From the sequence record OQ973471.1: a stretch of 64,000 bases of DNA; one strand, written 5' to 3'. The notes under the pieces were generated by a model. That model saw only the letters and a list, made by a program, of their open reading frames with translations, did not search any database and was not told where the DNA came from. This document shows positions 44,001 through 58,367 of the stretch, in pieces; within the stretch, counting starts at the first letter, position 1, and every line of letters starts with the position of its first letter. The position numbers were made by a program, and so were the translations under genes. This DNA comes from Escherichia phage AV101.

Positions 44001-45899
44001 AAGGTAGTATGCCGCATCGCGTTGACCGCCGTCCAGAGTGAAGTTAGAGGTGACGTCAGCGCCATTTGCGTTCTTCACGCTGATCAGCTTGTAGCCGTCG
44101 TGGTTCCCAAGTTGTGCGCTGGCCGCCGCAGTAAACGTCACAGTCTCGGTGACTTCGGTAACAGTCTTGGTCTTGATCGTCGCTGTGGTGCGGACCATCA
44201 ATGCCAACAGGTTGATAGACTGGTTGGCATACCCCGCGCCCAGGGAAATCTGCAGTGCTGAGCCAACCGGAGTACCAGCCAGGGACAGTCCCGAAGAGAT
44301 ATCAAACTGAGCTGCAGTGCCATCTGCTTTCGCTGCGGAGTACAGTGAAAACTCAGGGCTGAAGCTGTAACCCAGAGGAGCGGAGATTGAGCCTGCACCA
44401 GCAGCGTTCAACGTGATCTTGTTTGACCGCAGGACGGTGTAGTTGATGTCGATGGTGCCTGTAGGTGCTAGAGTCTTCACACCAAATACAGGCAGAGGGA
44501 AGATCAGGTCAATTGCTGAACTCTGGCTGAACTGATTGGACTCCAGTTCGCAAGAGAACATCGTTGTGCCGCTTTCTTCATAAGCGACTTTGGTCACCGT
44601 GCCCATGTCCCCAGTCACAACCAGGTCGCGCATATACAGACGGAATTCAGTACCAGAGCGCTCTGCCGAAATCAGCAGGGCGGTGGCCTGTACATCGCTG
44701 GATGCGTTCAGGAACTTGTAGCGGATTGTGCGGGAGACAACCGGAACCCCTTTGGAGTTCTTGGACACCAGATAGTTGCCAGTCGAAACAGCCACAGGGT
44801 TGTTGTTCAGGATATCAGTGTCACGGGCTTTGTCAATTATGACCAGCTCTTCGCCGAGGTTTTCGATACGACGACCACGAACGTAGGATATCCCTGGCTT
44901 CATAACCGCCACGAATTTGCTTTCGTCGCCACCTTCGGCCGGAGTGTACACGCCGCCGTTGTTGTTCTGTTTCAGATGTTCGCGCAGGTCGATCTGGTGA
45001 GTAGAGACGTTGTAGTCACCATTGGTCTCATAGGTGCGCTGAGCCATCGCGTCTTCGAGGATGTTGTACGTTGACTGGGCGACCATAGACTGAATGCGAC
45101 CGTCTTTCACCTTCGCCAGTTCAACGAAGTCGGCCACTTCTTCATCATAACCGTAGCGAGACAACACGAGGTCGACGCGCAGGCGATGCGCACCAGGGGC
45201 TTTAGAGTTCGGAGTACCCTGAGCATTGGAGAACAGACTTTCATCTTCTGCTTCGGTCACGATTGTTTCTGTAACTTTGAAGCCAATGCGGTGAGATGTA
45301 GAGTTCGATGCGTTGTCTACGATCAAAGTGGTTGGTTCAACATCCAGGAACATACCACGAACGAAATAAACACCCTTTGTCATGCGAGCGACAATCGAAC
45401 CACCAACAGTAGCGGCCACACCATAGCCGACACGGATGAAGTTATCGTTCACGTCATAGGTGTTGAAATATAGATTGTCACCAGCTTCGAAACCGTCTGA
45501 ACTACCACTCTCAGTCATCTCTAAGATAGCATACATTGTATCCGGCTCAACTGGGTAACGTTCCAGAGACAGGACGCGTGCTTTCGCATTGTTGTCCTTG
45601 CCCAGAACATAGAGTTCGGAGATACCTTCCAAATCAGTGAACTCACTACCACCAGCCAGAGTGAACTTCATGGACACAGCAGTGTTGGTGATCGTTAGGC
45701 CGCCGGGGATAACCATTGAACCGTCTTTGAACAGATGGTTGCCAAGTTTCTCCAGTTGATCCTGGAAGATGGTCTGCATCTGGTTCAGTTCACGAGTCTG
45801 AACTTTGATCGGTGCCGGACGGAATAGAATGCGCGAAAAACGCTTCTCTGGATTCCAGTCATCCCAATATGGGCGGCGGTTGAGGTTCATTTCTTGCAT
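41061..45899 (-). CDS. large virion structural protein (about 1612 aa; baseplate or tail-fibre component)
   Basis: Listed ORF start is TTG; ATG at MQEMNLN has GGAG RBS and CTAAATAT motif about 40 nt upstream; Ser/Thr/Gly/Asn-rich beta-type composition. Confidence 0.7.
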   Translation of the reverse strand: MQEMNLNRRPYWDDWNPEKRFSRILFRPAPIKVQTRELNQMQTIFQDQLEKLGNHLFKDGSMVIPGGLTITNTAVSMKFTLAGGSEFTDLEGISELYVLGKDNNAKARVLSLERYPVEPDTMYAILEMTESGSSDGFEAGDNLYFNTYDVNDNFIRVGYGVAATVGGSIVARMTKGVYFVRGMFLDVEPTTLIVDNASNSTSHRIGFKVTETIVTEAEDESLFSNAQGTPNSKAPGAHRLRVDLVLSRYGYDEEVADFVELAKVKDGRIQSMVAQSTYNILEDAMAQRTYETNGDYNVSTHQIDLREHLKQNNNGGVYTPAEGGDESKFVAVMKPGISYVRGRRIENLGEELVIIDKARDTDILNNNPVAVSTGNYLVSKNSKGVPVVSRTIRYKFLNASSDVQATALLISAERSGTEFRLYMRDLVVTGDMGTVTKVAYEESGTTMFSCELESNQFSQSSAIDLIFPLPVFGVKTLAPTGTIDINYTVLRSNKITLNAAGAGSISAPLGYSFSPEFSLYSAAKADGTAAQFDISSGLSLAGTPVGSALQISLGAGYANQSINLLALMVRTTATIKTKTVTEVTETVTFTAAASAQLGNHDGYKLISVKNANGADVTSNFTLDGGQRDAAYYLSNLISSTGAISGTFTVVYQYFAHSSGDFFTADSYSSINYPDIPNYVSSSSGTVYGLADSLDFRPKITSGASDTDMVRPNTAIILDAEYYLPRIDAVYLADNGVFNVARGVSSNNLASPAIPDNSMRLYELMIPPYTANIDDIQIRTIDNRRYTMRDIGKLETRISNVEYYTSLSQLESSAMAQQVFDPITGNPRFKNGIAADPFKDFRLIDDLSTDWVGSIDTDNGRLRPFVQQNAIDLTPVGWNNVQDGMVVCNYTREISVRQDYATTTINVNPYAVFNWEGFLKLNPTTDYWFENYYVTPRVINETINTRGAIKEGSVYGTWRTVSVSERVWEPHGAGGVWWGYRYRTTVSTRDITTYTYTDRTTTTMTGEQIVETQVIPYMRKTNINFEATGLRPFTRVYPFFSGRDVSAYCTPNGGVLGGALNTDANGNIKGVFAVPQNETIKFNTGDNVFRLTDSPVDSKSADDTLTNAEAVHKSFGKKQGIQKTYVNTRVLGYTATKSTENKTETVEVAKWKDPIAQSFMVATNIGGEYIEGIEVFFSTKSRDIPITLEIREMSNGLPATTVVTRKTLNPSEVSVSTDSSVPTMFKFDYPVYLQAQTEFAIVLLANTQDYNAYIAEMGKKNLLTNEFIAKQPYTGVFFTSSNGTTWTPNQTADMKFRVYRCNFSAGSNIVTFDAKVGPKIRPLGLNTVKCVNGSSTVTVYAPGHGLTAGESVTLSGLTGGCGFTPEQLNAQHTVTDATFTTFKFVLSSNADSDGQIGGEAASFLGNYLVDMFYASVTNSALEGSVLKLEYRYRDATSNSFSDWVEFESDTDVSLPTEGIYRQVGDFQVRATMTRNESNVYTAPMIDGDDFTIIFNTYGVDPFEDVFSYVTKDIGFDNPCTTLKQYFGAMLPSQSSMTVQVKLLRAGQEMDNVAWETVTPTSPLVNDGSTFFEYEYDKTVDSTNPFVGLKIRLLVRGNRTAPPSFKDFRLIALA

Positions 45900-45931
45900 T
45901 TTGATGCTCCATCGATAGGTGCCATTATAGA

Positions 45932-45940
45932 GATATTTAG
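45932..45940 (-). promoter_or_regulatory. late-promoter-like motif CTAAATATC
   Basis: Upstream of the 1612-aa gene. Confidence 0.35.
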
Positions 45941-46469
45941 TATACAACCAACCGAGGAATAGAAAGAAATAAGCCCGAAGGGGCTTTGATTATCTTTCTG
46001 TGGTGGCCTCAGCAGAAGCCGTACATCAATTATTTGCCATCGTTCAGGTCTCCCAGGTACACTCGGACGCCGTTGATACCTGACGCCGAAGAAATCAGAA
46101 TTTTCAGAGTACTATCGACGTACACCGCCCAACTGGATGTTACCAGACAACGCATAAGTTGGCATATTGACCTCAACGTTCTTTAGTCTATTGCCTATGT
46201 CATTGTTTGAATCTAGGAGTTCTACCAGAGTCTCTTCCATTTTCTCCCTTTCCCTCGATTCACGGGTTTTGGTTTTCGAAAATGTTTCTCAGTCTCTCTT
46301 CGAGTCTGGCTAGAGTTACGTTATCTGGTTCATTTCCCATAGGGATTTTCTCAGGTTAGTTAAGTCGGAATTGACTGAAACAGTCTACCTAATGACTTGT
46401 TTGTGGTACAACAAAACCCCCTCCCCTCATGGGCTTCGAAGATTAAATACTTTTTCTAATGATAAAAAT

Positions 46470-46496
46470 AACCCCGCCGAAGCGGGGTTTTTGTTA
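46470..46496 (-). terminator. rho-independent terminator (UUCG tetraloop)
   Basis: AACCCCGC-CGAA-GCGGGGTTTTT. Confidence 0.6.
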
Positions 46497-46497
46497 G

Positions 46498-48699
46498 TTA
46501 CTGGATAACAATACTACACTCCATATCTGAAACAACACCCGCATTGCTGTATGTTGTAATAGTCCATGATGTTGTTGATGTTTTATTAACAACAACATAC
46601 CGTCCAGTACCAGGTGAAGAAAAAGTGTAGCCCGCGCGTGACATATCAGTAGGGAAGTTGATGACCCAAATACCAACGGATGATTTAGTCGCGGTACAAC
46701 CAGCAGCAAGAGCAAGCGCACCAGAAGAGTTGATATTAACTACGCACGGTGAACTTACCAGCTTAACCACACCAGAGTCGAGAGTATATGTATCGTAAAC
46801 TGTGCCGATGCGGTTCATCCCAAGATATGTCACCGCAGAAGAAGCCAATCCCGCCCGGTTACGTAGCACGACAGACACCCCAAGACCTGAGCAGTTAGTA
46901 ACTTGCTGGTCAGAAACCATACCGGAAGTGGAACTGTATTGTTCAAGAACTGCGTCAACCGTGTTTGATCCGTTGTAGCAATTGAACGTTACATTTTCCA
47001 ATCTGTTTCTGCGCACGCTTTTCCCAAAATCAGACCTAACATTACATATACGGTTATATTGCCCAGGGGTATTAATGGTGACCATACCTCCACTGATAAC
47101 GTTATCTAAGCAGTCTGTTAAAGAAATTTGATGGTCAAAAAATCCATATGCGCTCTTGAAGTCGCCGTTGTTCTGCATGAATATCTGAACGTTTTCGATT
47201 CGGTTATTGCTGCACCCCTGTAAAGCCACCACGTGGTCGTTACCGTTAAATGCTCCATTGGAAATACTGGTAAACTTACCGCCGATGATTTTGCAGTTGG
47301 TGCAGCCTCTAGAGAATTTAATATTATTATTACCGCCTACGGCGCCATCAACACTCCCCAAAACGGATGAATTCATAACGCCCTCACAATCTATGAATTT
47401 AAAATCCGTGGTCGGGAACCCAGTGCCATCTGCGGATGTAGCATGGTAGTTTATTAGTAGCCCGTTTTCTGCGTACCCTTCAGATACATATCCACCTTTA
47501 ACACCTAGAACCTCCATATTCCCCCCGGCTTTAGGCTGCCCAATGAAGCGAGGAAATGTAATCTCGGGATATAGTGCACCAATTAATACAAAATTACCGT
47601 GGTTTGGACCCTTGAATCCTGTGTTATCAAATGTGCAACTATTGGATCTTACACCTACTCGACGAGAAGAATCTGATGCGCCATAGGCTGTATTACCCAT
47701 ACGTAGAGGGGTTACTTCTGTGGATAGCGTGGTAAAGTAAATACCAGAGACTTCGGTATAATTTCCTGTTAACTCCACTGCACCTTTTGTTTGGTCGAAA
47801 GATGACCCGACCAATGTTATTATACCACCGCGACCTATCAATCTACGGTTATCAAGATCACTGATAACATTACTTGATAAAGTCACATTAATGTCAATAT
47901 AAACTGTTTTATAGTGAGTAATCAGTACATATAGCAAAGAGCTTACATCGTCACCCTCAGCAGCCCATGCTGATATAAAAGTATCAACGTCATCCTCTAT
48001 TTTTTCAAGGTAAACAATTGTAGAGTCAATTGTCATGGTTTGATCACTTATTGACCCTATAACTCCAGATACTTCTGGCTTAATTCTGTAGATACCAGAA
48101 TCAGTATTAACAAATGACGTACCAACTGGAACTGTACCTCCAACCTGTGCAACTGATGAGATATCTAATGGGTAAACGTTACCGCCAATAACTTTATTTC
48201 TCATATCATTAACGTCACATCGAAGTGAAGCATCCCCAACACTAATCCACGCTCCTAAACCTTCTCCACCCGTTGACCCTGGAGTTGTGTCAGCAGGAAC
48301 TACTTTAGGCAGTACACCATCCCATCGGTACTTACCATCAGTAAATACAACCAGTTCATTCTTAGTATTAACTGTTACGCCCGTAGAAAATGATCCAGGT
48401 AGGGTTACATACTCTTCGCGGGTAACAGCTAGTGCACCCAAGTCCACATTACCAGCAGAGTGAACTAATACCCCAGTAGGACTAAGGCTTACAGCAGTAA
48501 CCCCTGAACCAATGTCAGCAGGTAGGGAATAAGCCCGTTGTGACACTTTGTCATAGATGACTTTATAACCGCTTAGTACAGCACCCACCGAGAAGTAAAC
48601 AACCTCGGATTGTTTAACCCCAAAGTGTCGGGCCACTGCTTGTTTATTGGTTAAGATTCCGGTTGAACCTTTACCACCTTGTGAGAACATTTCGTTCAT
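46498..48699 (-). CDS. tailspike protein (733 aa) with shared N-terminal module
   Basis: N-terminus (GVKQSEVVYFSVGAVLSGYKVIYDK...GKYRWDG) also found in the 648-aa and 1102-aa proteins; Gly/Asn/Thr/Ser-rich C-terminal body. Confidence 0.8.
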   Translation of the reverse strand: MNEMFSQGGKGSTGILTNKQAVARHFGVKQSEVVYFSVGAVLSGYKVIYDKVSQRAYSLPADIGSGVTAVSLSPTGVLVHSAGNVDLGALAVTREEYVTLPGSFSTGVTVNTKNELVVFTDGKYRWDGVLPKVVPADTTPGSTGGEGLGAWISVGDASLRCDVNDMRNKVIGGNVYPLDISSVAQVGGTVPVGTSFVNTDSGIYRIKPEVSGVIGSISDQTMTIDSTIVYLEKIEDDVDTFISAWAAEGDDVSSLLYVLITHYKTVYIDINVTLSSNVISDLDNRRLIGRGGIITLVGSSFDQTKGAVELTGNYTEVSGIYFTTLSTEVTPLRMGNTAYGASDSSRRVGVRSNSCTFDNTGFKGPNHGNFVLIGALYPEITFPRFIGQPKAGGNMEVLGVKGGYVSEGYAENGLLINYHATSADGTGFPTTDFKFIDCEGVMNSSVLGSVDGAVGGNNNIKFSRGCTNCKIIGGKFTSISNGAFNGNDHVVALQGCSNNRIENVQIFMQNNGDFKSAYGFFDHQISLTDCLDNVISGGMVTINTPGQYNRICNVRSDFGKSVRRNRLENVTFNCYNGSNTVDAVLEQYSSTSGMVSDQQVTNCSGLGVSVVLRNRAGLASSAVTYLGMNRIGTVYDTYTLDSGVVKLVSSPCVVNINSSGALALAAGCTATKSSVGIWVINFPTDMSRAGYTFSSPGTGRYVVVNKTSTTSWTITTYSNAGVVSDMECSIVIQ

Positions 48700-48719
48700 A
48701 TAAACCTCTTTGTTTTTCT

Positions 48720-48746
48720 AGTAAACCCCTCCGAAGAGGGGATTGT
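48720..48746 (-). terminator. hairpin terminator (UUCG tetraloop)
   Basis: CCCCTC-CGAA-GAGGGG. Confidence 0.5.
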
Positions 48747-51050
48747 TTAATTACTAATCTTACCACGTATGGATAGCTCAAGAGCGCCAGTTGATACACC
48801 TGCTGCGTTAATTTGGGTTCTTGAACCATTTGCCGTTTTATAAAAGAATTCTATAGAGCTGCCGTTCAAAACAGCTATTACCCCAATGTTGCTTTGGTTG
48901 ATGTTCCCAAAGCAGGAATTCTGGCTTGGTTCTGATGTAGGCCCAAAATAGCACTTAAGTCCACGAGGCAGAGTAACGGATAACGAACCCGAAGGGCTGG
49001 AAATTGCCGTCACATTAATAAGTAAAGAAATGTCTATGTGTTCACCGTCTCTGCGTAAACTATATGTGCCGGAAGAAGTTATTCCTACGCCATTGAATGA
49101 TATGCTTCCTGTAAGATTGCTTAAATTACCAGCGATATACTCAGGGAGCCTAACAAGGTTAGTAAACAATGTATCTTGATGACCAGAGTCGTATGATGCT
49201 CTTTCAACAATTAACTTAGATGGATTTATTACATCTGCAATTTCAATCTCATTTCTGGCAGACTCTCCTTTAAAATACACCAAAGCCATGTTTGTGTTTA
49301 CGTCTTCCGGATGGATCAACGCATTCCCCGCTATTATCTTATTACGCCAACCCTCTATGTAAAACCCTACACCACCGTTTGATCTACTTGAGCCAAGTGA
49401 ACTGTTAATTTTTGTCACAGTGTCTGCGTAAGGTCTAATGAAAGTTGAAGCGCTACCAGAAATGAGAAACGGTATTTTACACTGCATATTAGGGTATTTT
49501 TGGGATGAATCGGTTGAAGTTACAGGATAACCCCACGGGTGAGGGTTGATAAAAACTGTACCACTACCTTTTACATCGTGAATTCCGATACCGTAAGCGA
49601 CGGTTACTACATCTTTGAACGTTGAATCGGTTACATTAGAACGGAAACCGATCTTCTCTGAATCCTCCCATGCGTGAATCCATGATAAACATTTGTCGAT
49701 TACTATTTCGTAACCTTTCCCAGAAACCCCTCCAACGTCAACCCCACCGTTAAGAAAGCCGAAAGTTTGTAGATTGCGTATATACACATTAGCTATGTCG
49801 GTAATTACTACTCCTTTCGAAGCAATATGCTGGTCAGTGTAGCCGGAAGGCTCTCTGTTCGCGGTGTATGTTAAGGTTAGTCCCGTAACAGAGGCAGACT
49901 TAGCATTATTAAACACTCCATTTTCTGTAGTAATAATATAAGCAGCGTTCTCTGTGTTACTTTGCGCAGTGGTAAAAGTGTAATTCCCGGAAGGGGAAGC
50001 TATGATTCTACCTGTGCATAAAACATTCAAACCATCATAGTGTATGACACTTGAAGATATATTGTAGTCATTGGCAAGCAACACGCTCTTATTATTTGAA
50101 CGAGCATATGCGTATGCCTCATTTATCATAACGGCCCAGTCAGTTTCCCCTGGATGATTTTCATAGAACTGTTCTGGAGTTACGAATCGGAAAGAGTCTT
50201 TTAACTTAACAAGAGATTCTTCAACAGTGTCACCGGAGCTAGTATGAATCATACTTGACCCAGTATTGGCAGCAAGTTCACTCTTCAACTTGGCAGCCGA
50301 ATCAGGCACTTCAACTAGAGGGACTGTAATAGGACCAGGATTATAGGTTAACTGCCCATTGGATACGGAGCCAATATAGACATTGGACGGTAACGACGGC
50401 AAGCCATAAGACTTCTGTTCATTAACAGAGTAAACAACCTTCTTACCATTGAGGGACTGAGTAGTATCAGTGCTGAGAATTACTTCAGAGTCTTTTACAT
50501 TAGCTGCACGAGCGATTTCTTGAATACTTCGGTCAAACAACGGACTGATATTCGGTTGTTTAACAGACATTTCAGCGACTACCCAAACGCCTGCAGTCAG
50601 CGCGGTTTGTAAAGACACTTTCCCTGTCGTGCTGTTATAGGAATATTCAATTTCGGGTGTTTTGTACTCACCACCGATATAAAGAGATTGGACTCCATAA
50701 GATGTGTAATCAGGAGTGAACTCGGTTTCACCTCCTATAGCCTGGAACTTATAGATTCGAATCCCGGTTTTATAATCTTCTGGAGACAGAATCTTATCAA
50801 ACAGACAGAACACAACATCACCTTTGGACAATGCGCGTCCGAGATTCAACGTATTTCCATCGATTTCAAAGTTGTCTAACGGAACTTGCATACCACCGTT
50901 GATTGTGACTATACCAGTGACAGGGTAGAAAGGGAGGGAGATAAACTTCTCTCCGCCCGTTGCTGTGTAAGTGTATGGAATCTGGTGCGGAGCTGTTACG
51001 ACCGCTCCAAAGATGCTCTCGACGTTTCTGGTCATTTGAAGATACCCCAT
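48747..51050 (-). CDS. tailspike protein (767 aa)
   Basis: Contains the VKDSEV linker-type segment shared with the 1102-aa protein; beta-rich body. Confidence 0.75.
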   Translation of the reverse strand: MGYLQMTRNVESIFGAVVTAPHQIPYTYTATGGEKFISLPFYPVTGIVTINGGMQVPLDNFEIDGNTLNLGRALSKGDVVFCLFDKILSPEDYKTGIRIYKFQAIGGETEFTPDYTSYGVQSLYIGGEYKTPEIEYSYNSTTGKVSLQTALTAGVWVVAEMSVKQPNISPLFDRSIQEIARAANVKDSEVILSTDTTQSLNGKKVVYSVNEQKSYGLPSLPSNVYIGSVSNGQLTYNPGPITVPLVEVPDSAAKLKSELAANTGSSMIHTSSGDTVEESLVKLKDSFRFVTPEQFYENHPGETDWAVMINEAYAYARSNNKSVLLANDYNISSSVIHYDGLNVLCTGRIIASPSGNYTFTTAQSNTENAAYIITTENGVFNNAKSASVTGLTLTYTANREPSGYTDQHIASKGVVITDIANVYIRNLQTFGFLNGGVDVGGVSGKGYEIVIDKCLSWIHAWEDSEKIGFRSNVTDSTFKDVVTVAYGIGIHDVKGSGTVFINPHPWGYPVTSTDSSQKYPNMQCKIPFLISGSASTFIRPYADTVTKINSSLGSSRSNGGVGFYIEGWRNKIIAGNALIHPEDVNTNMALVYFKGESARNEIEIADVINPSKLIVERASYDSGHQDTLFTNLVRLPEYIAGNLSNLTGSISFNGVGITSSGTYSLRRDGEHIDISLLINVTAISSPSGSLSVTLPRGLKCYFGPTSEPSQNSCFGNINQSNIGVIAVLNGSSIEFFYKTANGSRTQINAAGVSTGALELSIRGKISN

Positions 51051-51140
51051 AGAGGATTTGCCAATATGGGGTATTTAGTCTGAACTAATAAATTTATGAA
51101 CAAAGGTATAACAAGAACCGCCGAAGAGGGGGTTTGATTT
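51036..51140. repeat. about 100-bp duplicated upstream cassette, copy A
   Basis: Near-identical to 53518-53632; includes CTAAATACCCC (as GGGGTATTTAG), an ATACCCCAT/ATGGGGTAT inverted repeat and a terminator hairpin. Confidence 0.7.
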
Positions 51141-51330
51141 TACTCTCCAAAATCACGATCCTGTCTTCCCTTGCCTGATTATCAAACAGAGTCTTCAATC
51201 GTTCCTCCAGTCTGAATAGGAACAGTTCACCTGATTCATTCATAATATTACCGTAATTGTACCCCAATGAGGCCGTATCATAGGATGGCTCTTAGATAAT
51301 GCTTAGTATGATGGGATACATCCATACATA

Positions 51331-51546
51331 GTGTCTGGCACTATATCTATAGCAGGAACTCTTAGCTATAGCATATACCTTACACATCAGACGGTAATGT
51401 TCTCCGTTGTTAATATATTTTCAGCCATTTCAACTAAAGAAATGATGACAACATATGCATTACTTACAACCGCATTAATTTCGGCTGTGATAACAATGAT
51501 CGTATCGATACTTCTGTACAACAAAGTTGAGAAAAAGTTCATATAA
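51331..51546 (+). pseudogene. C-terminal remnant of an acyltransferase-3 family (O-acetyltransferase-like) membrane protein
   Basis: LSYSIYLTHQTVMF resembles the AT3-family SYSIYLWH motif, followed by a hydrophobic helix; AT-rich; no ATG start (GTG in frame); plus strand within the minus-strand tailspike cluster. Confidence 0.4.
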
Positions 51547-51551
51547 TAACA

Positions 51552-51575
51552 AGGCCCATTATCGGGCCTTTTGTT
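51552..51575 (+). terminator. rho-independent terminator
   Basis: GGCCC-ATTATC-GGGCC followed by TTTTGTTTAT. Confidence 0.5.
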
Positions 51576-53521
51576 TATAGCTGGCAAGTAAAGCTCAAGT
51601 CTATTGATGCATGACCTGTTATCAGATCTGTTATCTGAACATCTTCAGGAGATCCACTTCTGAAGATCTTTCTAAAAAATATTTTACCTCCAGTAATATA
51701 CCCAATAACTTCAATTAGGTTGGTGTCAGCGCGTATAGTATTATTCAATATTGTGAATATTGAGCCAGTGCAATCACCCTTGAATGAGCTTAGGTAAGGG
51801 GGAAGAGATATTGAAAACGCACCGGATCCAACGTTGCTTGTTATGTTGCATTCAATAGTTAACCTTCCTGATACGCTGCGCTGAGTCAATTCATGCCTAT
51901 ATACTTGTGAAGTATATGCGCAAGGTGCGTTTATGGTTGGGTTGAATCCAGTGGACTGAGGGAAAACGTAGAAGCTTTGTAAGTTACCACCAGATACAGT
52001 ATTATTGATTGGCGTTGCTGAACCAGAAAACACATACACACCACCATCTTCGATACCTGAAACATCAGAACTAACAGGTTCTCTAATGCTATTATCCGTT
52101 CCACTAATGTAGAATACCTTCCCATACTTAGGACCATCATTTTCATGAAAAAGGACTCTTGGGCACACCAAGTTGTTATTGAAACCAGATATTACATATC
52201 CGATCCCACCATTAGCTATACTTGCTGGCTGTGTTTTGTCAAGCTTATGTGGCGTGTCAGAATAATAATTAATAACGTTATTTGAACTACCACCAAGCTT
52301 TAAACCAATTAACATCACGCGTGTTGTTCTAATTCCATCTAACCCCCAGACGTGTGTGTTAACTATGTCATTTGCTCCGCTTGTAACTTCCATGCCGACA
52401 GGATATCCAACTACCGTTGTATTGATATACATACTATCAGAAGTACGGTGTAATATCCCACTAACGCCAGATGTTCCAAGCTGGTCTTCCGGTGCTACAA
52501 CTACTGTATTATTGAATTTCCACTCATAACCCTTTTCAATATTAATACCTCCATTTAGCATATTGAAAATTCTTGCGTTATTTATCACTGGTCCAACACC
52601 ATCAGTACCATAGATTCCAACAGCCGATATTGACGATTCTGGCTCAATATAAAGATTGTCAATAAGGACTCTATTTCCTGTTTGTATAGCTGTTATACCA
52701 TCATTATAAGGTGATCTCCATTTATCATCTTTTACTTCTATAACAACTGTATCAGTAAAATTCTTGGGTACGATAGACCCTATATTATGCATTCTTGCTC
52801 CACTATTTAAAACAAGACGCGATGTTATGCATGTTTTACCAATAAACAATACGGTTCTTTTATTTGTTGCTGACCAATCTAAAGCTTGCTGATTAGGAAT
52901 GGTATCATCATCAATACCATTACATTTAGCGCCAAATGATCGGTTTGTAATGCAATCAGTCAATACATCTTCAACAATTCTTGTTGAAAAACCTGTTGGC
53001 CCAAATCCTATTAATCCTGCCCCTGTTGGCTTAGCGAGGTCAGATCTTAGCGCCGCATCACCAACACTAACCCACGCACCAACAGCAATACCTCCAGCAG
53101 TTTCAGGGGTTGAACCAGCTGGCACTACTTTGGGAAGCTCCCCATCCCAGCGATACTTCCCCGTTGTATAGGTAAGTAATTCATTTTTAACATTAAGGGT
53201 AGCACCTGTATCGAAAGATCCTGGTAAGGTTACGTATTCTTCGCGGCTTACTGCTAATTCCCCAAGATCAACAGAACCCGCTGAATGAGTGAGGATAGCT
53301 CTTTTATCCAGACTTATCGCAGTCGTTCCTGAAACAATACCTGAAGGAAGAGAATAAGCCCGTTGGGTAGACTCATTATAAATTACTTTAAATCCACTGA
53401 GATCAATACCAGCAGTGAAATAAATGACTTCGTCTTCTTTGACACCGAAATTTCGAGCGATAGATTGTTTGTTAACTTCTATAGAAGTGGAGCCGCGTGG
53501 TTGATTGAATTGAGAAATCAT
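51575..53521 (-). CDS. tailspike protein (648 aa) with shared N-terminal module
   Basis: N-terminus MISQFNQPRGSTSIEVNKQSIARNFGVKEDEVIYF... parallels the 733-aa protein. Confidence 0.8.
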   Translation of the reverse strand: MISQFNQPRGSTSIEVNKQSIARNFGVKEDEVIYFTAGIDLSGFKVIYNESTQRAYSLPSGIVSGTTAISLDKRAILTHSAGSVDLGELAVSREEYVTLPGSFDTGATLNVKNELLTYTTGKYRWDGELPKVVPAGSTPETAGGIAVGAWVSVGDAALRSDLAKPTGAGLIGFGPTGFSTRIVEDVLTDCITNRSFGAKCNGIDDDTIPNQQALDWSATNKRTVLFIGKTCITSRLVLNSGARMHNIGSIVPKNFTDTVVIEVKDDKWRSPYNDGITAIQTGNRVLIDNLYIEPESSISAVGIYGTDGVGPVINNARIFNMLNGGINIEKGYEWKFNNTVVVAPEDQLGTSGVSGILHRTSDSMYINTTVVGYPVGMEVTSGANDIVNTHVWGLDGIRTTRVMLIGLKLGGSSNNVINYYSDTPHKLDKTQPASIANGGIGYVISGFNNNLVCPRVLFHENDGPKYGKVFYISGTDNSIREPVSSDVSGIEDGGVYVFSGSATPINNTVSGGNLQSFYVFPQSTGFNPTINAPCAYTSQVYRHELTQRSVSGRLTIECNITSNVGSGAFSISLPPYLSSFKGDCTGSIFTILNNTIRADTNLIEVIGYITGGKIFFRKIFRSGSPEDVQITDLITGHASIDLSFTCQL

Positions 53522-53632
53522 GATAATACCCCATAAAGGATGACCAATATGGGGTATTTAGTCTGAACTAATCAAATTTATGAACAAAGGTATAATAAGA
53601 ACCCCGCCAAAGCGGGGTTTGACACTCCTATT
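53518..53632. repeat. about 100-bp duplicated upstream cassette, copy B
   Basis: See copy A. Confidence 0.7.
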
Positions 53633-53799
53633 CCAGACACATTTCAAAATATATACCAACATCACCCCACCCATCATAAACAGACGACCCCGATATTCTT
53701 GATATCATCTATGACAACCTGAGAGAGCCAACAGCATTATCAATTAGGGTAATGCAAACAGTAAACTCTATATAAAAAGTATTATTAATAAGTAAAACT

Positions 53800-53822
53800 A
53801 ACCCCGCCGAAGCGGGGTTTTT
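53800..53822 (-). terminator. rho-independent terminator (UUCG tetraloop)
   Basis: AACCCCGC-CGAA-GCGGGGTTTTT immediately downstream of the 1102-aa gene. Confidence 0.6.
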
Positions 53823-53824
53823 AC

Positions 53825-56800
53825 TTATATTACTGACGTCACAGTTCCAGATATAGACGCTTTTACACTTGAAGTTGGATTTGGTCTAACTTGAACAGTA
53901 CCCCTGTTACCAGATGCTCCGATAAACACATCATATCCGGTTGAAGCATTAAAGTCAGAGAACAGACTTACAGGAGCATTATTTTGCGCAACTAGTGTAG
54001 CTGATGATGTCCCATATCGCTTCAATATACCAGGTGTAGTAGCAGAAGAATTACCATCCCTTCTGCATACAATATCCAAGTCAAACGTGTAACCATCAAA
54101 CCCGTACTGTGCAGTATCCTGGAAGAACTTCATTACTTCAGTGGTTGAGCCCCCAGCCGGAGCAACATGGTTGAAACCGGAGAAGGTCATACGAGTAAAT
54201 CGGTTATCTTGTACAACAGTATCAAATGTCTTTTCAATCTTAAGACTACTAAGCCCATATACACCGTTTAAGATAATGGGGTTTTGTACTCGGGCGTTCA
54301 TGCGAATATCTAGCGCAGGGGCACTGTATAAATCTATACGTTCGCCCACAGCCCCAGAACGATCGGTAATGTTAACAGCAATAGAAAAAGTGGTATCGTT
54401 TCCTTCAATTTTGATGGAAGAGCGTTTATCCGCATTAATTGAAATGGCAGGGGATGTCTCAGCTGTTGACATTCCAATAATCGTTAACGCTCGCACATAC
54501 TTAGTGATATATATCTTTGCTTCTTCACTATAGTTACCTGCCAAATATGTTGCCTGGCTGTCACCAATTCTTACCTCACCTGTTTCAATTGTACTTGAAA
54601 TTACTGACGTACCAATAATGGGAACTTCAACCTTAGTCCCAGATTGAAACTCAGAAGTCATTGCACGGTCAAGTGTCAACACATTCCCAGAGATTGCTGT
54701 TATACGCCGTGTTTCTACACCTCCAGTAGAATTAGTGAAAGCAATCTCAAACCAAGTATCGAATCCAGCTGCGTCAGCAACAGTAACAGTAGTATCCCCA
54801 ATATTTGCTGCTGAGCTAAGTGTCGTACTCATTCCTTCAATAGAAACCGTACACTGTCCCGTACTACCACCAATATAGCCCATCAACTTTATCGAGTTAT
54901 TTCGGACGCGAACACCATACTTAGTTCTGGTGGAGCCATTTGTTGTTCCTTGCGAATGACCATGCCAATTAATAACCAGATGTAAAAGATCATAATTACT
55001 GATGCGGTGGTTAATTGATTTATTTCTAATGGTTGTATAGGGCGCTGTGTAAATAGCTCTCCCAGCTGCTGATGATCCTTTTTCCTCTACTCCACCATTA
55101 ACCGTGAAACCCTCAATGGTTTGATGCCAGTGTAGTCGATCTCGATTCCTATCTCGTGGGTCAATACCAACGTGGTGTAGCGAAATATCTGAATCTGCTG
55201 ACATAAGAATAGTTGCGTCATTGCCAGCACCAGAGAAGGTGAACCCACGACGGTCAACATCAAGAGTCACTTGGTTGGTACTAAAAGTACCAGATGGAAA
55301 ACTGAGCTTTCTAATAACTGCATTAGCTCGTGCTACACGGTTAGCCTCATCTATAGCAGCAGAGTTAGCAACAGGGTCAGTTCCACCAAAACCAAACTCT
55401 TCATAACCCATATTACGGTGTAATATTAGGTTAGCAAATAAACCATTTGCAAGGGTTATAGCATATGTGCTGCTATCTTTCGTAGCACTGACTCGCCATT
55501 TCGATATTGTTTTAATACCATATTCGTTAGCTGCTGTTTCAACTAGCATTCCCTCTACTAATGGAATATTCTCACCCGATGGTAGGGTTCCTGTCACAAG
55601 TTCGCTAACCGTTTTAAAATTAATTGTAATATTCTTATTCACCCATTTCTTAATGGAGTGGACACCTACACTAATCCATAAACCACTACCAATACCTCCA
55701 GTTGTTGCTGGAGTAGAGTCAGCGGGGACTTCTTTAGGCAATGCACCATCCCAACGGTATTTACCATCTGTAAAGACAACTAACTCATTCTTGGTATTAA
55801 CAGTTACACCTGTATCGAATGAACCAGGTAAGGTCACGTACTCCTCACGAGATACAGCTAATGCGCCCAGATCAACACTACCAGCAGAATGCACAAGTAC
55901 AGCCGAAGAACTAAGGCTGACTGCCGTGGTTCCAGTCGGTAGCTCTGGAATAAAATATGATCTCTGTGTTACTTTATCATAGATAACTTTATACCCACTT
56001 AACACAGCACCAACACTAAAATAAACGACCTCTGTATCTTTAACATTGGTTACACGAGCCACTTCCCGCAAAGTATAATCAATTTGATTATAGATGTTTG
56101 GTGTTCCATTGATAATTACAACAACTTCATCCTCTGGTTCCAGTTCTTGCGCAAGAGTGATTTTACTGGTTAATGGATCGAATGTGAACCCCAGATTTTT
56201 ATACTGGCGACTTCCGTTTATATCAATGGCCGGAACATCATCAACAACGACGTCCAACGTGATTTCGGTTTCACCACCAATCGCTGAACCCCCATTATAG
56301 ACCCAGGTAATCGTAGAAGAACCAGAACCACCGCCAGTGCCCAACTGAACCGGAGTATATTCTATTACCTGCAATTCAGTGCTGGCGGGCAAAGAAGGAC
56401 TGAAAGTGATTACATTCCCATCTAGTGAATATTTGGATTCCACAAGACGTTTTCCGTCAGCATATACGTCCACGATTATTGGTGGAGTATTGAGAGCGAC
56501 AGAACTTGTTTCAGACGCCAAAATTTGTGTAAATATTTCACGACTGTAGACACGACCTTGGCCAAGACCGACGCCGGATGTAATAATCCAACCTTGTTCA
56601 GGTCCAGACCAAGTGAACGTTGCTGATACGTTATCAGTTGTTATAGCCATGTCTTCAGTGGAGCCATACAAATTATTTCCAGAAGGAGACACGGTCAATG
56701 GGTAAGTGGCAAATTTCCCATAAGCATCACAAATAGTAACAGAATCCCCAATACGCGTAGGGGAAGGGAGAACCACTGTAGATGCCCCTGTGGTATTATT

Positions 56801-57133
56801 AATGAGATAGCCTCGCCCTTCAGTGAGCGTTGCCGTAGAGGCATGCGGAAGGACTTCCCAGCGGATGCCACCGCCACCCAGCGGCAACCATCCACCATTT
56901 TCATAGAAACCCTCAAATTCGTCGGAGTCGGCATTGTAGCGAACGGAAGACGGGAGTCCTGCGCTGGCATTACCCTCGGGTAAAGTCAGGACAGCATCTG
57001 GTCCATGCTCAATCGTACCCGTGTTGAGGACACCAGCCAAAGTAGACTGCTCTTCAGCCGCCAGACCGAGAGGGAAAACAGGCTGTGTTGGTTTATTAGC
57101 CATTTCAAATACCCCTAAATGTGTTCGTTTCAT
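53825..57133 (-). CDS. tailspike protein (about 1100 aa) with extended N-terminal region and internal shared module
   Basis: Internal VKDTEVVYFSVGAVLSGYKVIYDK...GKYRWDG module; true start may be MANKPTQ at 57103. Confidence 0.8.
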   Translation of the reverse strand: MKRTHLGVFEMANKPTQPVFPLGLAAEEQSTLAGVLNTGTIEHGPDAVLTLPEGNASAGLPSSVRYNADSDEFEGFYENGGWLPLGGGGIRWEVLPHASTATLTEGRGYLINNTTGASTVVLPSPTRIGDSVTICDAYGKFATYPLTVSPSGNNLYGSTEDMAITTDNVSATFTWSGPEQGWIITSGVGLGQGRVYSREIFTQILASETSSVALNTPPIIVDVYADGKRLVESKYSLDGNVITFSPSLPASTELQVIEYTPVQLGTGGGSGSSTITWVYNGGSAIGGETEITLDVVVDDVPAIDINGSRQYKNLGFTFDPLTSKITLAQELEPEDEVVVIINGTPNIYNQIDYTLREVARVTNVKDTEVVYFSVGAVLSGYKVIYDKVTQRSYFIPELPTGTTAVSLSSSAVLVHSAGSVDLGALAVSREEYVTLPGSFDTGVTVNTKNELVVFTDGKYRWDGALPKEVPADSTPATTGGIGSGLWISVGVHSIKKWVNKNITINFKTVSELVTGTLPSGENIPLVEGMLVETAANEYGIKTISKWRVSATKDSSTYAITLANGLFANLILHRNMGYEEFGFGGTDPVANSAAIDEANRVARANAVIRKLSFPSGTFSTNQVTLDVDRRGFTFSGAGNDATILMSADSDISLHHVGIDPRDRNRDRLHWHQTIEGFTVNGGVEEKGSSAAGRAIYTAPYTTIRNKSINHRISNYDLLHLVINWHGHSQGTTNGSTRTKYGVRVRNNSIKLMGYIGGSTGQCTVSIEGMSTTLSSAANIGDTTVTVADAAGFDTWFEIAFTNSTGGVETRRITAISGNVLTLDRAMTSEFQSGTKVEVPIIGTSVISSTIETGEVRIGDSQATYLAGNYSEEAKIYITKYVRALTIIGMSTAETSPAISINADKRSSIKIEGNDTTFSIAVNITDRSGAVGERIDLYSAPALDIRMNARVQNPIILNGVYGLSSLKIEKTFDTVVQDNRFTRMTFSGFNHVAPAGGSTTEVMKFFQDTAQYGFDGYTFDLDIVCRRDGNSSATTPGILKRYGTSSATLVAQNNAPVSLFSDFNASTGYDVFIGASGNRGTVQVRPNPTSSVKASISGTVTSVI

Positions 57134-57147
57134 CTAGGGGTATTTAG
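57105..57147 (-). promoter_or_regulatory. late-promoter-like motif within an inverted repeat
   Basis: AAATACCCCTA...TAGGGGTATTT palindrome spanning the 5' end of the 1102-aa gene. Confidence 0.4.
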
Positions 57148-57155
57148 TTTTCACT

Positions 57156-58367
57156 TTAGAAAGAAGCGACTAAATTGTAGTCAACGGAGCAAGCAGTCGT
57201 CGTGTTCGCATTTGTTATCGTCAAACGAAGTTTTGAAGACACTACAGAACCCGCGAATGTCACCGTACCGGAAGTGGACTTCTGTACCAACAGTTCAGAC
57301 TTGATAGTCCCGTCACGGGTGATCGTCACGCGGTACGTATCCACGACGTTGCCTGTACCCCATTGTGCACTGATCAACACCTGGCAAAGGTTCACCAAAT
57401 CGAAGTCGGGCAACGCAGAGTTCCCAGAAGCAGAGACAGTGATACCGCTTGGGTTGGTCTTCCCGATCTTCACACGGGCAGCAATGTCGGCGTCCAGGCT
57501 TGTCATTTTGGCGTTGTAGGTCGATGTGTTGACCTTTCCAGACAACGTGGTATTGATCGTGCCAATATCACTCTGAATGCCGCTGATGGAACTGTCCAAC
57601 GCCGCCATCTTCGTGTTATACGTACTGACGTTCACTTTGTTGTTCGTCAGATCCAGTATACTGGTGTCTAGGCTAGACATCTTGGAGTTGTAAGTCGACG
57701 TGTTGACCTTCGCAGCCAGAGTGGTGTTGACAGTGTTGAACTGAGACTGGATATCCAACATATCGGCATCGTAATCAACAACCTTCAGATAAGCGTTGAA
57801 ACGCGTATCATTGAAGATAGAAGTCACAAACGCAGATGTGTCGTACTTGACAGTGTCGGTTCCACTCACCAGTAACATGGTAGTTGGCACACCAGTACCA
57901 GAGTAAGTGGCCAGATTTGTGCCATCGAAAGTGAGTTTGTTGTAGCCGCCAGGTAACAACTCTATTTTCAGACCAGAGTTAACCCCGGCAGTGTCTTCGC
58001 TCACGCCGTGCTTGCGCAGCATAGACAGATTGACGCCATCAGTGGAATCAACTGGCTCATCTGCGATGGTAAGTTTCTTCCCCGTAGGGATACTGACACC
58101 AGCATTGGCTCGGATTTCTGCGGCAAAAGTCTTCCGCCCGTTGATAGTTTGTTCACCACCGTCGGTGCGGATCACTTTGTTTTCCAGTGTGTCGTAGATA
58201 TTATCCACAGAACGCTTCAGCTCATACGTCAGATGAGCTGAAGGAGGGAACAACGGATCATCAACAGCGAAATCGTTGACAACATCAGTCTTGCTTATTT
58301 TATCGTCAACAGAAGAAAGGATTGCATCAATCTGCTGACCTGTGTATTGACTCAGAAAATCGGCCAT
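57156..58367 (-). CDS. tail fibre/fibritin-like protein with tandem repeats
   Basis: Three tandem repeats of about 24 aa (VNTSTYNSKMSSLD, VNVSTYNTKMAALD, VNTSTYNAKMTSLD). Confidence 0.6.
   Translation of the reverse strand: MADFLSQYTGQQIDAILSSVDDKISKTDVVNDFAVDDPLFPPSAHLTYELKRSVDNIYDTLENKVIRTDGGEQTINGRKTFAAEIRANAGVSIPTGKKLTIADEPVDSTDGVNLSMLRKHGVSEDTAGVNSGLKIELLPGGYNKLTFDGTNLATYSGTGVPTTMLLVSGTDTVKYDTSAFVTSIFNDTRFNAYLKVVDYDADMLDIQSQFNTVNTTLAAKVNTSTYNSKMSSLDTSILDLTNNKVNVSTYNTKMAALDSSISGIQSDIGTINTTLSGKVNTSTYNAKMTSLDADIAARVKIGKTNPSGITVSASGNSALPDFDLVNLCQVLISAQWGTGNVVDTYRVTITRDGTIKSELLVQKSTSGTVTFAGSVVSSKLRLTITNANTTTACSVDYNLVASF

Follow-up and report, generated by a model that had tools for sequence, protein, structure and literature searches.

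Organization of the tailspike locus

The window analysed here is a stretch of 64,000 nucleotides from Escherichia phage AV101, in which four open reading frames (ORFs) lie in tandem on the minus strand at 46498-48699 (733 aa), 48747-51050 (767 aa), 51575-53521 (648 aa) and 53825-57133 (1102 aa). The original prediction had named these as four consecutive tailspike genes, the largest encoding about 1100 aa, and all four are present where it placed them. Their products are exact matches to TSP1-TSP4 of AV101 in GenBank, which defines the genes, all on the minus strand, as tsp1 (46498..48699; WJJ54142.1), tsp2 (48747..51035; WJJ54143.1), tsp3 (51575..53521; WJJ54145.1) and tsp4 (53825..57103; WJJ54146.1). 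Deposited TSP2 (762 aa, start at 51035) and deposited TSP4 (1092 aa, start at 57103) begin 5 and 10 codons, respectively, inside the longest ORF. Together with the adjacent protein of 403 aa (WJJ54147.1), five proteins match residue for residue, and the AV101 sequence containing them is 156,759 bp in length. For the three small ORFs of the tsp2-tsp3 spacer, no exact sequence was found in the protein collection.

The cluster is located between a VriC-like ORF of 1628 aa (41061-45947, DUF4815) and the baseplate wedge genes, which include a wedge protein at 58370-59224 (PF23786, E 1e-147). The same order of vriC, tsp genes and wedge is seen in phages CBA120, LPST94 and pSC20, and an array of two to four tsp genes flanked by vriC and the wedge genes, as found here, is a defining trait of the CBA120-type complex. 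Aglimvirinae phage A221 shares 97% backbone identity with AV101, as do further phages of Escherichia and Enterobacter placed in Agtrevirus by the AV101 paper (PMC10791037). With high confidence, the region can be assigned as the tsp1-tsp4 cluster of AV101 (Agtrevirus, Ackermannviridae), encoding a branched adsorption organelle of four specificities.

A tandem domain shared among the tailspikes

A segment of ~145-165 amino acids recurs in TSP1 (aa 1-165, 48208-48699), TSP3 (aa 1-164, 53033-53521) and the TSP4 ORF (aa ~350-500, 55637-56074). BLASTP comparisons between the copies give 52-74% identity with E values of 1e-52 to 1e-63, far beyond chance. BLASTN detects two pairs (E 5e-26 and 2e-31); the third, TSP1-TSP4, is covered by a repeat search and global alignment. 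Taken together, these methods confirm the predicted repeat of about 150 aa, N-terminal in two proteins and internal in the largest. Its nucleotide identity, put earlier at about 80% over about 400 bp, was overstated. By global alignment over 432-435 nt, the identity is 65.4% for TSP1/TSP3, 68.9% for TSP1/TSP4 and 63.5% for TSP3/TSP4; windows of 100 nt peak at 73-84%, and exact runs extend to 11-14 nt at most.

The repeated segment is the TD1-TD2 tandem domain, in which TD2 corresponds to Pfam PF18668 (E 2e-22 in TSP1 and 4e-24 in TSP3). In tsp1, TD1 (~48430-48699) and TD2 (aa 91-156, 48232-48429) form the N-terminus and are followed by a receptor-binding body (46498-48231). The arrangement is alike in tsp3, with TD1 at ~53255-53521, TD2 (aa 90-155) at 53057-53254 and the body at 51575-53056. 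In tsp4, TD1 (~55859-56074) and TD2 (55664-55858) are positioned behind an anchor and XD1-XD3 (~56090-57103) and precede the body (53825-55663). The tsp2 gene comprises XD2-XD3-TD1 (~50247-51035) and a body (48747-50246), its TD1 corresponding to the first half of the module in diverged form, with amino acid identity of 39.5% across 43 aa and 26% across the entire stretch. A second module, consisting of the gp10-like XD3 plus the TD1 region, is common to TSP2 and TSP4 (34% over 128 aa). As a correction to the original reading, the TD1-TD2 module is primarily a structural docking domain.

Predicted assembly of the branched complex

The predicted branched multi-tailspike apparatus is supported by N-terminal matches to solved structures of CBA120. 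The TD1-TD2 region of TSP1 matches CBA120 TSP1 (4oj5, E 5e-79) as well as the N-terminus of 4qnl, labelled 'tail fiber protein' (E 6e-71), and that of TSP3 matches CBA120 TSP3 (6nw9, E 1e-86). Residues 6-268 of the TSP2 ORF correspond to residues 1-264 of full-length CBA120 TSP2 (6w4q, E 4e-128), and residues 11-348 of the TSP4 ORF to residues 1-338 of CBA120 TSP4-N (7rej, E 8e-196); TSP4 also matches 5w6h (E 5e-74). The domain traits of the CBA120-type complex are therefore all found: an anchor and gp10-like XD1-XD3 in TSP4, XD2-XD3 followed by TD1 in TSP2, and an N-terminal TD1-TD2 in TSP1 and TSP3. Anchor, XD and TD domains are known to build the branched complex (PMC11721090), and for AV101 a star-like complex is visible by TEM (PMC10791037).

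Tailspike contacts are known, from published structures and biochemistry, for CBA120 alone (PMC11721090), and the assembly order and contacts described here for AV101 are transferred from that phage. By analogy, TSP4, with its anchor domain and gp10-like XD1-XD3, would attach to the baseplate, and TSP2 would join TSP4 by XD2-XD2 contacts. TSP1 may then dock on XD3 of TSP4, and TSP3 on XD3 of TSP2, each via its N-terminal TD1-TD2, a unit that could link any beta-helix body to the complex. TD1 of TSP1 has a net charge of +2 and that of TSP3 one of -1, with -9 for TSP4 residues 251-338 (~XD3); these calculated charges fit the electrostatic model of TSP1 binding to XD3 (PMC11721090).

Receptor-binding bodies

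Structure prediction, proposed as a check in the original prediction, together with Foldseek searches supported a right-handed beta-helix tailspike fold for the bodies of TSP2 and TSP4. The AF2 model of the TSP2 body (pLDDT 86; Foldseek 6f7k, E 2e-12) has the Det7, HK620, P22 and Sf6 tailspikes as its top matches. For the TSP4 body (pLDDT 88.9; Foldseek 6c72, E 1e-12), the top matches are Acinetobacter and Klebsiella depolymerase tailspikes together with CBA120 TSP2; sequence searches of Pfam and PDB returned nothing for this body, and the fold search alone succeeded. The TSP3 body is linked to the fold through a profile comparison with the TSP2 body, to which it is homologous (hhalign 98.8%, E 7e-17). 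The TSP1 body had no match in Pfam (E up to 10), PHROGs, a PDB sequence search or hhalign against the TSP2 and TSP4 body profiles, and is 63% identical to proteins of kutterviruses sal1 and SeF3a and of a short Escherichia phage CBA6 record. A match between TSP1 residues 20-360 and the beta-helix of CBA120 TSP4 (5w6h) was rejected, as it was gone when the body alone was searched.

In the AV101 paper, beta-helix AF2 models are given for all four TSPs, and each body is shown there by experiment to be a polysaccharide-degrading beta-helix. Halo and infection-inhibition assays there assign TSP1 to E. coli O8, TSP2 to O82, TSP3 to O153 and TSP4 to O159 (PMC10791037).

Mosaic junctions in tsp4 and tsp3

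Along tsp4, the closest relative changes. Codons 11-370 are 96-100% identical to tsp4 of A221 and LHE287, and codons 111-420 are ~95-100% identical to tsp4 of kuttervirus LPST94, with a dip at codons 241-261 to 81-88% and 83-88%, respectively. Against LPST94 tsp4, nucleotide identity is 45-78% in anchor/XD1 and 95-100% from XD2 to TD1. From codon ~431 to position 53790, beyond the stop codon and terminator, the match is to LPST94 tsp1 at 91.7% identity. These patterns point to a crossover from tsp4-type to tsp1-type sequence at the TD1/TD2 boundary, with the putative junction at ~55840 (ORF codon ~431). The crossover interval is only ~5 nt between the nearest available 'parents', and the true parents may be others. 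The swapping of receptor-binding bodies proposed in the original prediction is supported by this scar. No mention of the exact junction was found in the available part of the AV101 paper, which lists the same relatives of the TSP4 body as found here, namely LPST94, ST31 and Ro121c4YLVW (PMC10791037).

In tsp3, codons 1-50 are 98-100% identical in nucleotide sequence to kuttervirus tsp3, compared with ~74% for the flanking backbone against kutterviruses. The body is 85% identical at the nucleotide level to that of phage EcoIv28_Lewi and 92% identical to the prophage tailspikes of E. coli TBE6 and TST3, and the 5' limits of similarity differ, at codon ~122 for Lewi and codon ~195 for the TBE6 prophage. 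The 3' flank of tsp3 (51341..51574, plus) is foreign, being 99.6% identical over 234 nt to a P22-like prophage of E. coli TBE6. An acyltransferase-family gene is represented there by its last ~68 codons (ORF 51331-51546, plus, 5'-truncated), and a bidirectional terminator hairpin (51551-51570) is also present. The ORF aligns with positions 272-325 of the 326-position Pfam profile Acyl_transf_3 at E 7e-4, which is below the curated cut-off; in the TBE6 prophage, the acyltransferase gene is complete and convergent with the tailspike gene. The tsp3 body, together with the 3' flank, is inferred to derive from a P22-like E. coli prophage, with the acyltransferase fragment carried along. Such hitch-hiking would give the direction of one transfer, from temperate to virulent phage. 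The word 'acyltransferase' is absent from the main text of the AV101 paper (PMC10791037).

The tsp4 crossover and the prophage-derived tsp3 body are the two exchange events that appear readable in the window. As for the other genes, tsp2 is 95.6% identical to A221 tsp2 at the nucleotide level, and a sliding-window comparison places the end of high A221 identity at the tsp1 start. A blastn match spanning 48419-51141 had suggested an A221 breakpoint at TSP1 codon ~93, which was discarded as BLAST over-extension.

Intergenic cassettes with late-promoter-like motifs and terminator hairpins

The tsp1 gene is followed on its 3' side by a terminator hairpin, AACCCCGC-TTCG-GCGGGGTT (46470..46489, minus), that recurs after tsp4 and before the tsp3 promoter. 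In the tsp4-tsp3 spacer (53522..53824, minus), the tsp4 terminator hairpin (53800-53819) and a second terminator hairpin (53600-53619) are followed by the motif CTAAATACCCC (53551-53561, minus) and a hairpin before the tsp3 ATG; positions 53522-53620 are 99-100% identical to kutterviruses LPST94 and pSC20. The cassette upstream of tsp2 (51036..51137, minus) contains a degenerate terminator hairpin (~51105-51125) and CTAAATACCCC (51068-51078), and a further hairpin in it ends immediately ahead of the ATG. The cassette directly repeats 53526-53622 with 89% identity, and the two copies of 96-99 nt flank tsp3. Upstream of tsp4, the same late-promoter-like motif (57137..57147, minus) supplies the 5' arm of a 16-bp hairpin whose end is 4 nt away from the ATG at 57103.

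A literature search found nothing specific on the CTAAATACCCC motif, although T4-like late promoters are predicted in a related phage (PMC3296691), and a scan for sigma-70 promoters was at background (32 found versus 29.8 expected). The available part of the AV101 paper yielded no mention of promoter hairpins (PMC10791037), and a limited literature search did not find such a regulatory layer in Ackermannviridae papers. One tentative reading, on balance doubtful, is that each tsp gene is a self-contained expression-and-exchange cassette with a TD arm at its 5' end and a terminator/late-promoter arm at its 3' end. The hairpin carrying the late promoter in its 5' arm would hide the ribosome binding site in read-through transcripts, and only promoter-started transcripts would be translated. 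Translation of T4 lysozyme is reportedly limited in this way to transcripts started at the late promoter. If the same were true in AV101, a newly acquired body would automatically fall under the correct late control.

Proposed exchange of receptor-binding bodies

From the mosaic patterns, each variable body may be regarded as a cassette, bounded at the 5' side by the conserved TD module and at the 3' side by the conserved terminator/late-promoter cassette. Recombination in those arms with co-infecting Ackermannviridae could replace bodies and therefore change host range, and bodies may also be replaced, in a less regular manner, by recombination with prophages and phages that are unrelated. 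Homologues of the TSP2 and TSP4 bodies do sit behind other adaptors, both with PF18668 and PF03906 (T7 tail fibre N-terminus) and, for TSP4, also behind PF09008 (P22 head-binding domain) and PF03160. The TD1 motif GTTAVSL has been proposed as a recombination site (PMC8432352). The interpretation given in the original prediction is supported and agrees with published work on this phage and its family, with the correction that the paralogous copies within one genome are too diverged for efficient mutual recombination. With 63-69% nucleotide identity and exact runs of at most 14 nt, the TD modules of one genome are, judging by their sequence, poor substrates for each other. Co-infecting phages or prophages that carry much closer copies offer a better account of the exchange.

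The same divergence bears on two other explanations. The module could be kept purely as a structural docking domain, with its role as a recombination arm incidental or absent and bodies exchanged illegitimately anywhere. The paralogous copies lack long exact runs and their nucleotide identity is about equal to or below their protein identity, the 5' limits of tsp3 similarity are unequal (Lewi codon ~122, TBE6 codon ~195), and the 3' junction of the tsp3 body, within an unrelated acyltransferase gene, is itself illegitimate. This explanation is nevertheless considered unlikely: the tsp4 junction is inside the module at its most conserved stretch (codon ~431) with a 3' end at a conserved terminator, published comparisons place TSP1, TSP3 and TSP4 body swaps at the same region (PMC8432352), and engineered tsp swaps via homologous flanks work, including transfer of AV101 tsp2 to kuttervirus S117 (PMC11414711). 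A still less probable alternative is that the three or four copies recombine within one genome by gene conversion or unequal crossing-over, shuffling bodies or deleting genes in normal replication. In AV101, tsp4 carries the body found in LPST94 tsp1, and therefore bodies move between positions, yet such a change is equally possible between two co-infecting genomes. The direct repeats flanking tsp3, its lack in the close relatives A221 and LHE287 and its deletion in an engineered phage (PMC11414711) would suit recombination within a genome, but the low identity of the paralogous modules, their short exact runs and the lack of any sign of homogenisation argue against it.

It is barely conceivable that the repeats are an assembly artefact or that the ORFs encode non-enzymatic fibres instead of tailspikes, and nothing was found in favour of either idea. 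The artefact, named in the original prediction as what could overturn it, is ruled out because identical proteins have been deposited for AV101 and parts of the region have matches in 398 phage records. Against fibres stand the beta-helix depolymerase folds predicted for the TSP2 and TSP4 bodies and the published halo and inhibition assays for four of four TSPs (PMC10791037).

Significance and comparison with known systems

Multi-tailspike complexes account for the ability of a single virulent phage to infect hosts of several O-antigens and provide a platform for host range engineering. The biology of the locus has already been worked out, with receptor specificities measured and gene swaps demonstrated. 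Both the reading as a branched complex and the idea of recombination entered the literature between 2019 and 2024, so that the cluster, its shared N-terminal module and the role of the module in body swapping are already described, and the finding is an ordinary one. The window adds detail in the form of a base-level crossover point (TD1/TD2), a prophage acyltransferase fragment and a promoter/hairpin block conserved at the borders of the cassettes.

The published AV101 locus (GenBank OQ973471; Sorensen et al. 2023, PMC10791037) is the same locus, without sequence differences. CBA120 (Kuttervirus; PDB 4oj5, 6w4q, 6nw9, 5w6h, 7rej) shares the N-terminal anchor, XD1-3, TD1 and TD2 domains and has the same gene order, in which four tsp genes are followed by homologues of orf215, orf216 and the gp6-type wedge; the large ORF upstream of the cluster is annotated as VriC in relatives. 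It belongs to another genus, with ~74% backbone identity beside the cluster, and differs in all four bodies, which recognize O21/O157/O77/O78 rather than O8/O82/O153/O159. In T4 gp10 and gp10-like adaptors (Klebsiella podophages, G7C gp63.1/gp66), XD domains likewise dock further receptor-binding proteins (PMC11721090, PMC13352976), but one or two extra proteins are attached, whereas AV101 has four trimeric spikes in one branched unit. Tailspikes of E. coli P22-like prophages consist of a head-binding domain and a beta-helix, followed by an O-antigen-modifying acyltransferase gene. The TBE6 prophage resembles AV101 in the tsp3 body and 3' flank (92-99.6% identity), while in AV101 TD1-TD2 takes the place of the P22 head-binding domain as the tsp3 adaptor, and only the last ~68 codons of the acyltransferase gene are left.

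The tailspike gene cluster

Four minus-strand ORFs lie in tandem at 46498-48699 (tsp1, 733 aa), 48747-51050 (tsp2, 767 aa), 51575-53521 (tsp3, 648 aa) and 53825-57133 (tsp4, 1102 aa), where the original prediction had placed four consecutive tailspike genes. In exact-sequence look-ups, the 733-aa protein is WJJ54142.1 of AV101, the 767-aa ORF read from its sixth codon (762 aa) is WJJ54143.1, the 648-aa protein is WJJ54145.1, the 1102-aa ORF read from its eleventh codon (1092 aa) is WJJ54146.1, and the 403-aa product of the next gene is WJJ54147.1. All five are encoded on one 156,759-bp AV101 sequence, and these matches assign the window to Escherichia phage AV101 (Agtrevirus, Ackermannviridae). 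The structural-gene backbone (20000-44000) is 97% identical to that of the Aglimvirinae phage A221 and to those of related Escherichia/Enterobacter phages that the AV101 paper places in Agtrevirus (PMC10791037). No record in the phage collection searched spans more than 38% of the region, because OQ973471 itself is absent from that collection.

The longest tsp2 and tsp4 ORFs open at 51050 and 57133, ahead of the deposited starts (51035 and 57103) by 5 and 10 codons, and their first ATGs fall within or directly after a promoter/hairpin block. Since PDB homologues and the identity with the close relatives A221 and LHE287 begin at the downstream ATGs, these are likely the real starts.

Adjoining tsp4 is the gene of the 403-aa protein (57156-58367, minus strand), a homologue of orf215 of the kuttervirus CBA120 that is annotated in some relatives as a tail fibre protein. 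It contains 73-nt direct repeats at 57489-57561 and 57663-57735 (78% identity, 174 nt apart) encoding the repeated motif NTTL..KVNTSTYN.KM..LD. On the other side of the cluster, a 1628-aa ORF (41061-45947, minus strand) matches DUF4815 (E 9e-61) and, weakly, a phage spike trimer; relatives' annotation names it VriC virulence-associated protein.

Shared modules and the branched complex

The predicted recurring segment is present as about 145-165 aa at the N-termini of the 733- and 648-aa proteins and internally in the 1102-aa protein (residues ~350-500), with nucleotide coordinates that were right within about 30 nt. BLASTP among the three copies gives 52-74% identity (E 1e-52 to 1e-63). The nucleotide identity of ~80% originally put forward was overstated, the measured values being 65.4%, 68.9% and 63.5% over 432-435 nt, with 73-84% in the best 100-nt windows and longest exact runs of 11-14 nt. 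Two further relationships had been overlooked: a diverged copy of the module's first half in the 767-aa protein, and a second module common to the 767- and 1102-aa proteins (34% over 128 aa).

The N-termini of all four tailspikes (TSP1-TSP4) match their CBA120 counterparts in sequence searches against solved structures. TSP1 residues 1-172 align on 4oj5 (E 5e-79), TSP2 residues 6-268 on full-length TSP2 6w4q (E 4e-128), TSP3 residues 1-213 on 6nw9 (E 1e-86), TSP4 residues 11-348 on the fragment 7rej, which holds the anchor and the gp10-like domains XD1-3 (E 8e-196), and TSP4 residues 354-510 on 5w6h (E 5e-74). Since a Pfam search also finds PF18668 (Tail_spike_N), the signature of the second tandem domain (TD2), in TSP1, TSP3 and TSP4, the repeated module is TD1-TD2.

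According to the published CBA120 model, TSP4 is the baseplate anchor, XD2-XD2 contacts link TSP2 to TSP4, and the TD domains of TSP1 dock on TSP4 XD3 and those of TSP3 on TSP2 XD3 (PMC11721090). A crude count of net charge in AV101 (+2 for TSP1 TD1, -1 for TSP3 TD1 and -9 for TSP4 residues 251-338) fits the electrostatic part of this docking model. Together, the CBA120-type N-termini and the mosaic tsp genes support the original interpretation of a branched multi-tailspike apparatus with swapping of receptor-binding parts; the prediction holds for its ORFs, repeated segment and interpretation, and fails in its identity value.

Receptor-binding bodies

Beyond the module lies the receptor-binding body. 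An AlphaFold model of the TSP2 body, built from an alignment of 27 sequences (mean pLDDT 86.1), has the Det7 tailspike gp208 as top PDB match (E 2e-12), followed by the HK620, P22 and Sf6 tailspikes and phage depolymerases. The TSP4-body model (31 sequences, pLDDT 88.9) matches Acinetobacter/Klebsiella depolymerase tailspikes and CBA120 TSP2 (E 1e-12 to 1e-10), and the TSP3 body is homologous to that of TSP2 (433 columns, hhalign probability 98.8%, E 7e-17). The original prediction had been staked on beta-helix folds; tailspike folds are found for TSP2 and TSP4 from models and for TSP3 by homology, and for the TSP1 body, searches of Pfam, PHROGs and PDB sequences and a profile comparison found no match. 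PMC10791037 reports models in which all four proteins are beta-helices, and its halo and inhibition assays show that TSP1-TSP4 act on E. coli O8, O82, O153 and O159.

Several different adaptors precede homologues of the TSP2 and TSP4 bodies: TD2 (PF18668) and the T7 tail-fibre N-terminus (PF03906) are found with both, and PF03160 and the P22 head-binding domain (PF09008) with the TSP4 body as well. The tsp2 gene is 95.6% identical to that of A221.

Mosaicism of tsp4 and tsp3

Codons 11-370 of tsp4 share 96-100% identity with A221/LHE287 tsp4, and codons 111-420 about 95-100% with tsp4 of the kuttervirus LPST94, with a dip at codons 241-261 in both (81-88% and 83-88%, respectively). Over codons 1-110, the anchor region, identity with LPST94 tsp4 is just 45-78%. 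At informative sites, AV101 tsp4 tracks LPST94 tsp4 to about codon 428-431 and then LPST94 tsp1, with the exception of one variable patch (codons ~472-496). Resemblance to LPST94 tsp1 (91.7% over 2139 nt) extends beyond the stop codon and the terminator hairpin as far as 53790. This switch places a recombination junction at about 55840, the TD1/TD2 boundary, ~25 codons 3' of GTTAVSL, the motif proposed as the recombination site (PMC8432352).

The tsp3 gene reads as a mosaic of three parts. Over its first ~50 codons and in the cassette upstream of it, identity with kutterviruses is 98-100%, against only ~74% for the backbone just outside the cluster. Similarity to the tailspike of the 48-kb phage EcoIv28_Lewi starts at codon ~122 (85% identity), and similarity to the P22-like prophage tailspike of E. 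coli TBE6 and TST3 at codon ~195 (92-93%). The 234 nt past the stop codon are 99.6% identical to the TBE6 prophage. This flank of tsp3 (51331-51574, plus strand) holds the last ~68 codons of a truncated acyltransferase-family gene, which match the C-terminal end of the Pfam profile Acyl_transf_3 (E 7e-4), and a bidirectional terminator. Whereas the TBE6 prophage has the full acyltransferase gene, convergent with its tailspike gene, AV101 has only the remnant, which is a hitch-hiking scar of the tsp3 body transfer. As a truncated passenger, it shows that the transfer ran from a temperate phage to the AV101 lineage.

Cassette borders

One terminator hairpin (AACCCCGC..GCGGGGTT) occurs after tsp1, after tsp4 and before the tsp3 promoter, with a degenerate version ahead of tsp2. 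Direct repeats of 96-99 nt (51042-51137 and 53526-53622, 89% identity) lie upstream of tsp2 and tsp3 and, at a spacing of 2484 nt, enclose the whole tsp3 gene; this block is kept in the other Ackermannviridae loci examined. The TD module and the 96-99-nt terminator/promoter block would form conserved arms on either side of each variable body, an arrangement that may permit double crossovers with related phages during co-infection. Within one genome, the TD paralogues are too diverged for efficient mutual recombination. Recombination between the direct repeats could delete tsp3, and such a loss would give exactly the arrangement of A221 and LHE287, which have only three tsp genes, without tsp3.

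Between tsp4 and tsp3, two copies of the hairpin (53600-53619 and 53800-53819) stand 200 nt apart. The intervening 53620-53799 partly matches sequence 3' of tsp1 in LHE287 and A221 and is probably a remnant of an earlier cassette exchange. Non-coding sequence 3' of tsp1 (46264-46425) shares 91% identity with the A221 spacer that follows tsp4, and a short peptide-like motif, RLEERL..F.NQ, occurs in small ORFs at both 46260-46340 and 51094-51267.

A late-promoter-like motif and its hairpins

[quoted passage not shown] Four of the five sites have the motif as the 5' arm of an inverted repeat of 10-12 bp, which extends further in the predicted RNA fold and whose 3' arm (GGGGTAT) stops 4-8 nt before the start codon. 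The predicted hairpins (-16 to -21 kcal/mol, z -4 to -7.7) show compensatory arm differences between sites (CCCCTA/TAGGGG, CCCCATA/TATGGGG, CCCCCAT/ATGGGGG). The layout is kept upstream of those tsp4, tsp3 and tsp2 genes found in CBA120, LPST94, the kuttervirus pSC20, A221 and LHE287. For T4 lysozyme, the ribosome-binding site is masked in read-through transcripts and free in those started at the promoter within the hairpin. By analogy, it is possible that read-through RNAs of the AV101 tsp genes hide this site and promoter-started RNAs do not.

Comparison with known systems

The AV101 cluster, the branched complex, the specificities and tsp exchange are already known. PMC11721090 summarises the CBA120 complex, PMC8432352 presents TSP subtypes and the hypothesis of recombination at TD1, and PMC11414711 describes experiments in which tsp genes were exchanged, among them AV101 tsp2 placed in kuttervirus S117. 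PMC10791037 gives the four specificities and reports that AV101 bodies resemble those of prophages and of LPST94, ST31 and Ro121c4YLVW, the same three phages recovered in the present search. To these, the present analysis makes small additions: the precise position of the tsp4 junction, the acyltransferase remnant ('acyltransferase' does not occur as a word in the main text of PMC10791037) and the promoter-hairpin arrangement.
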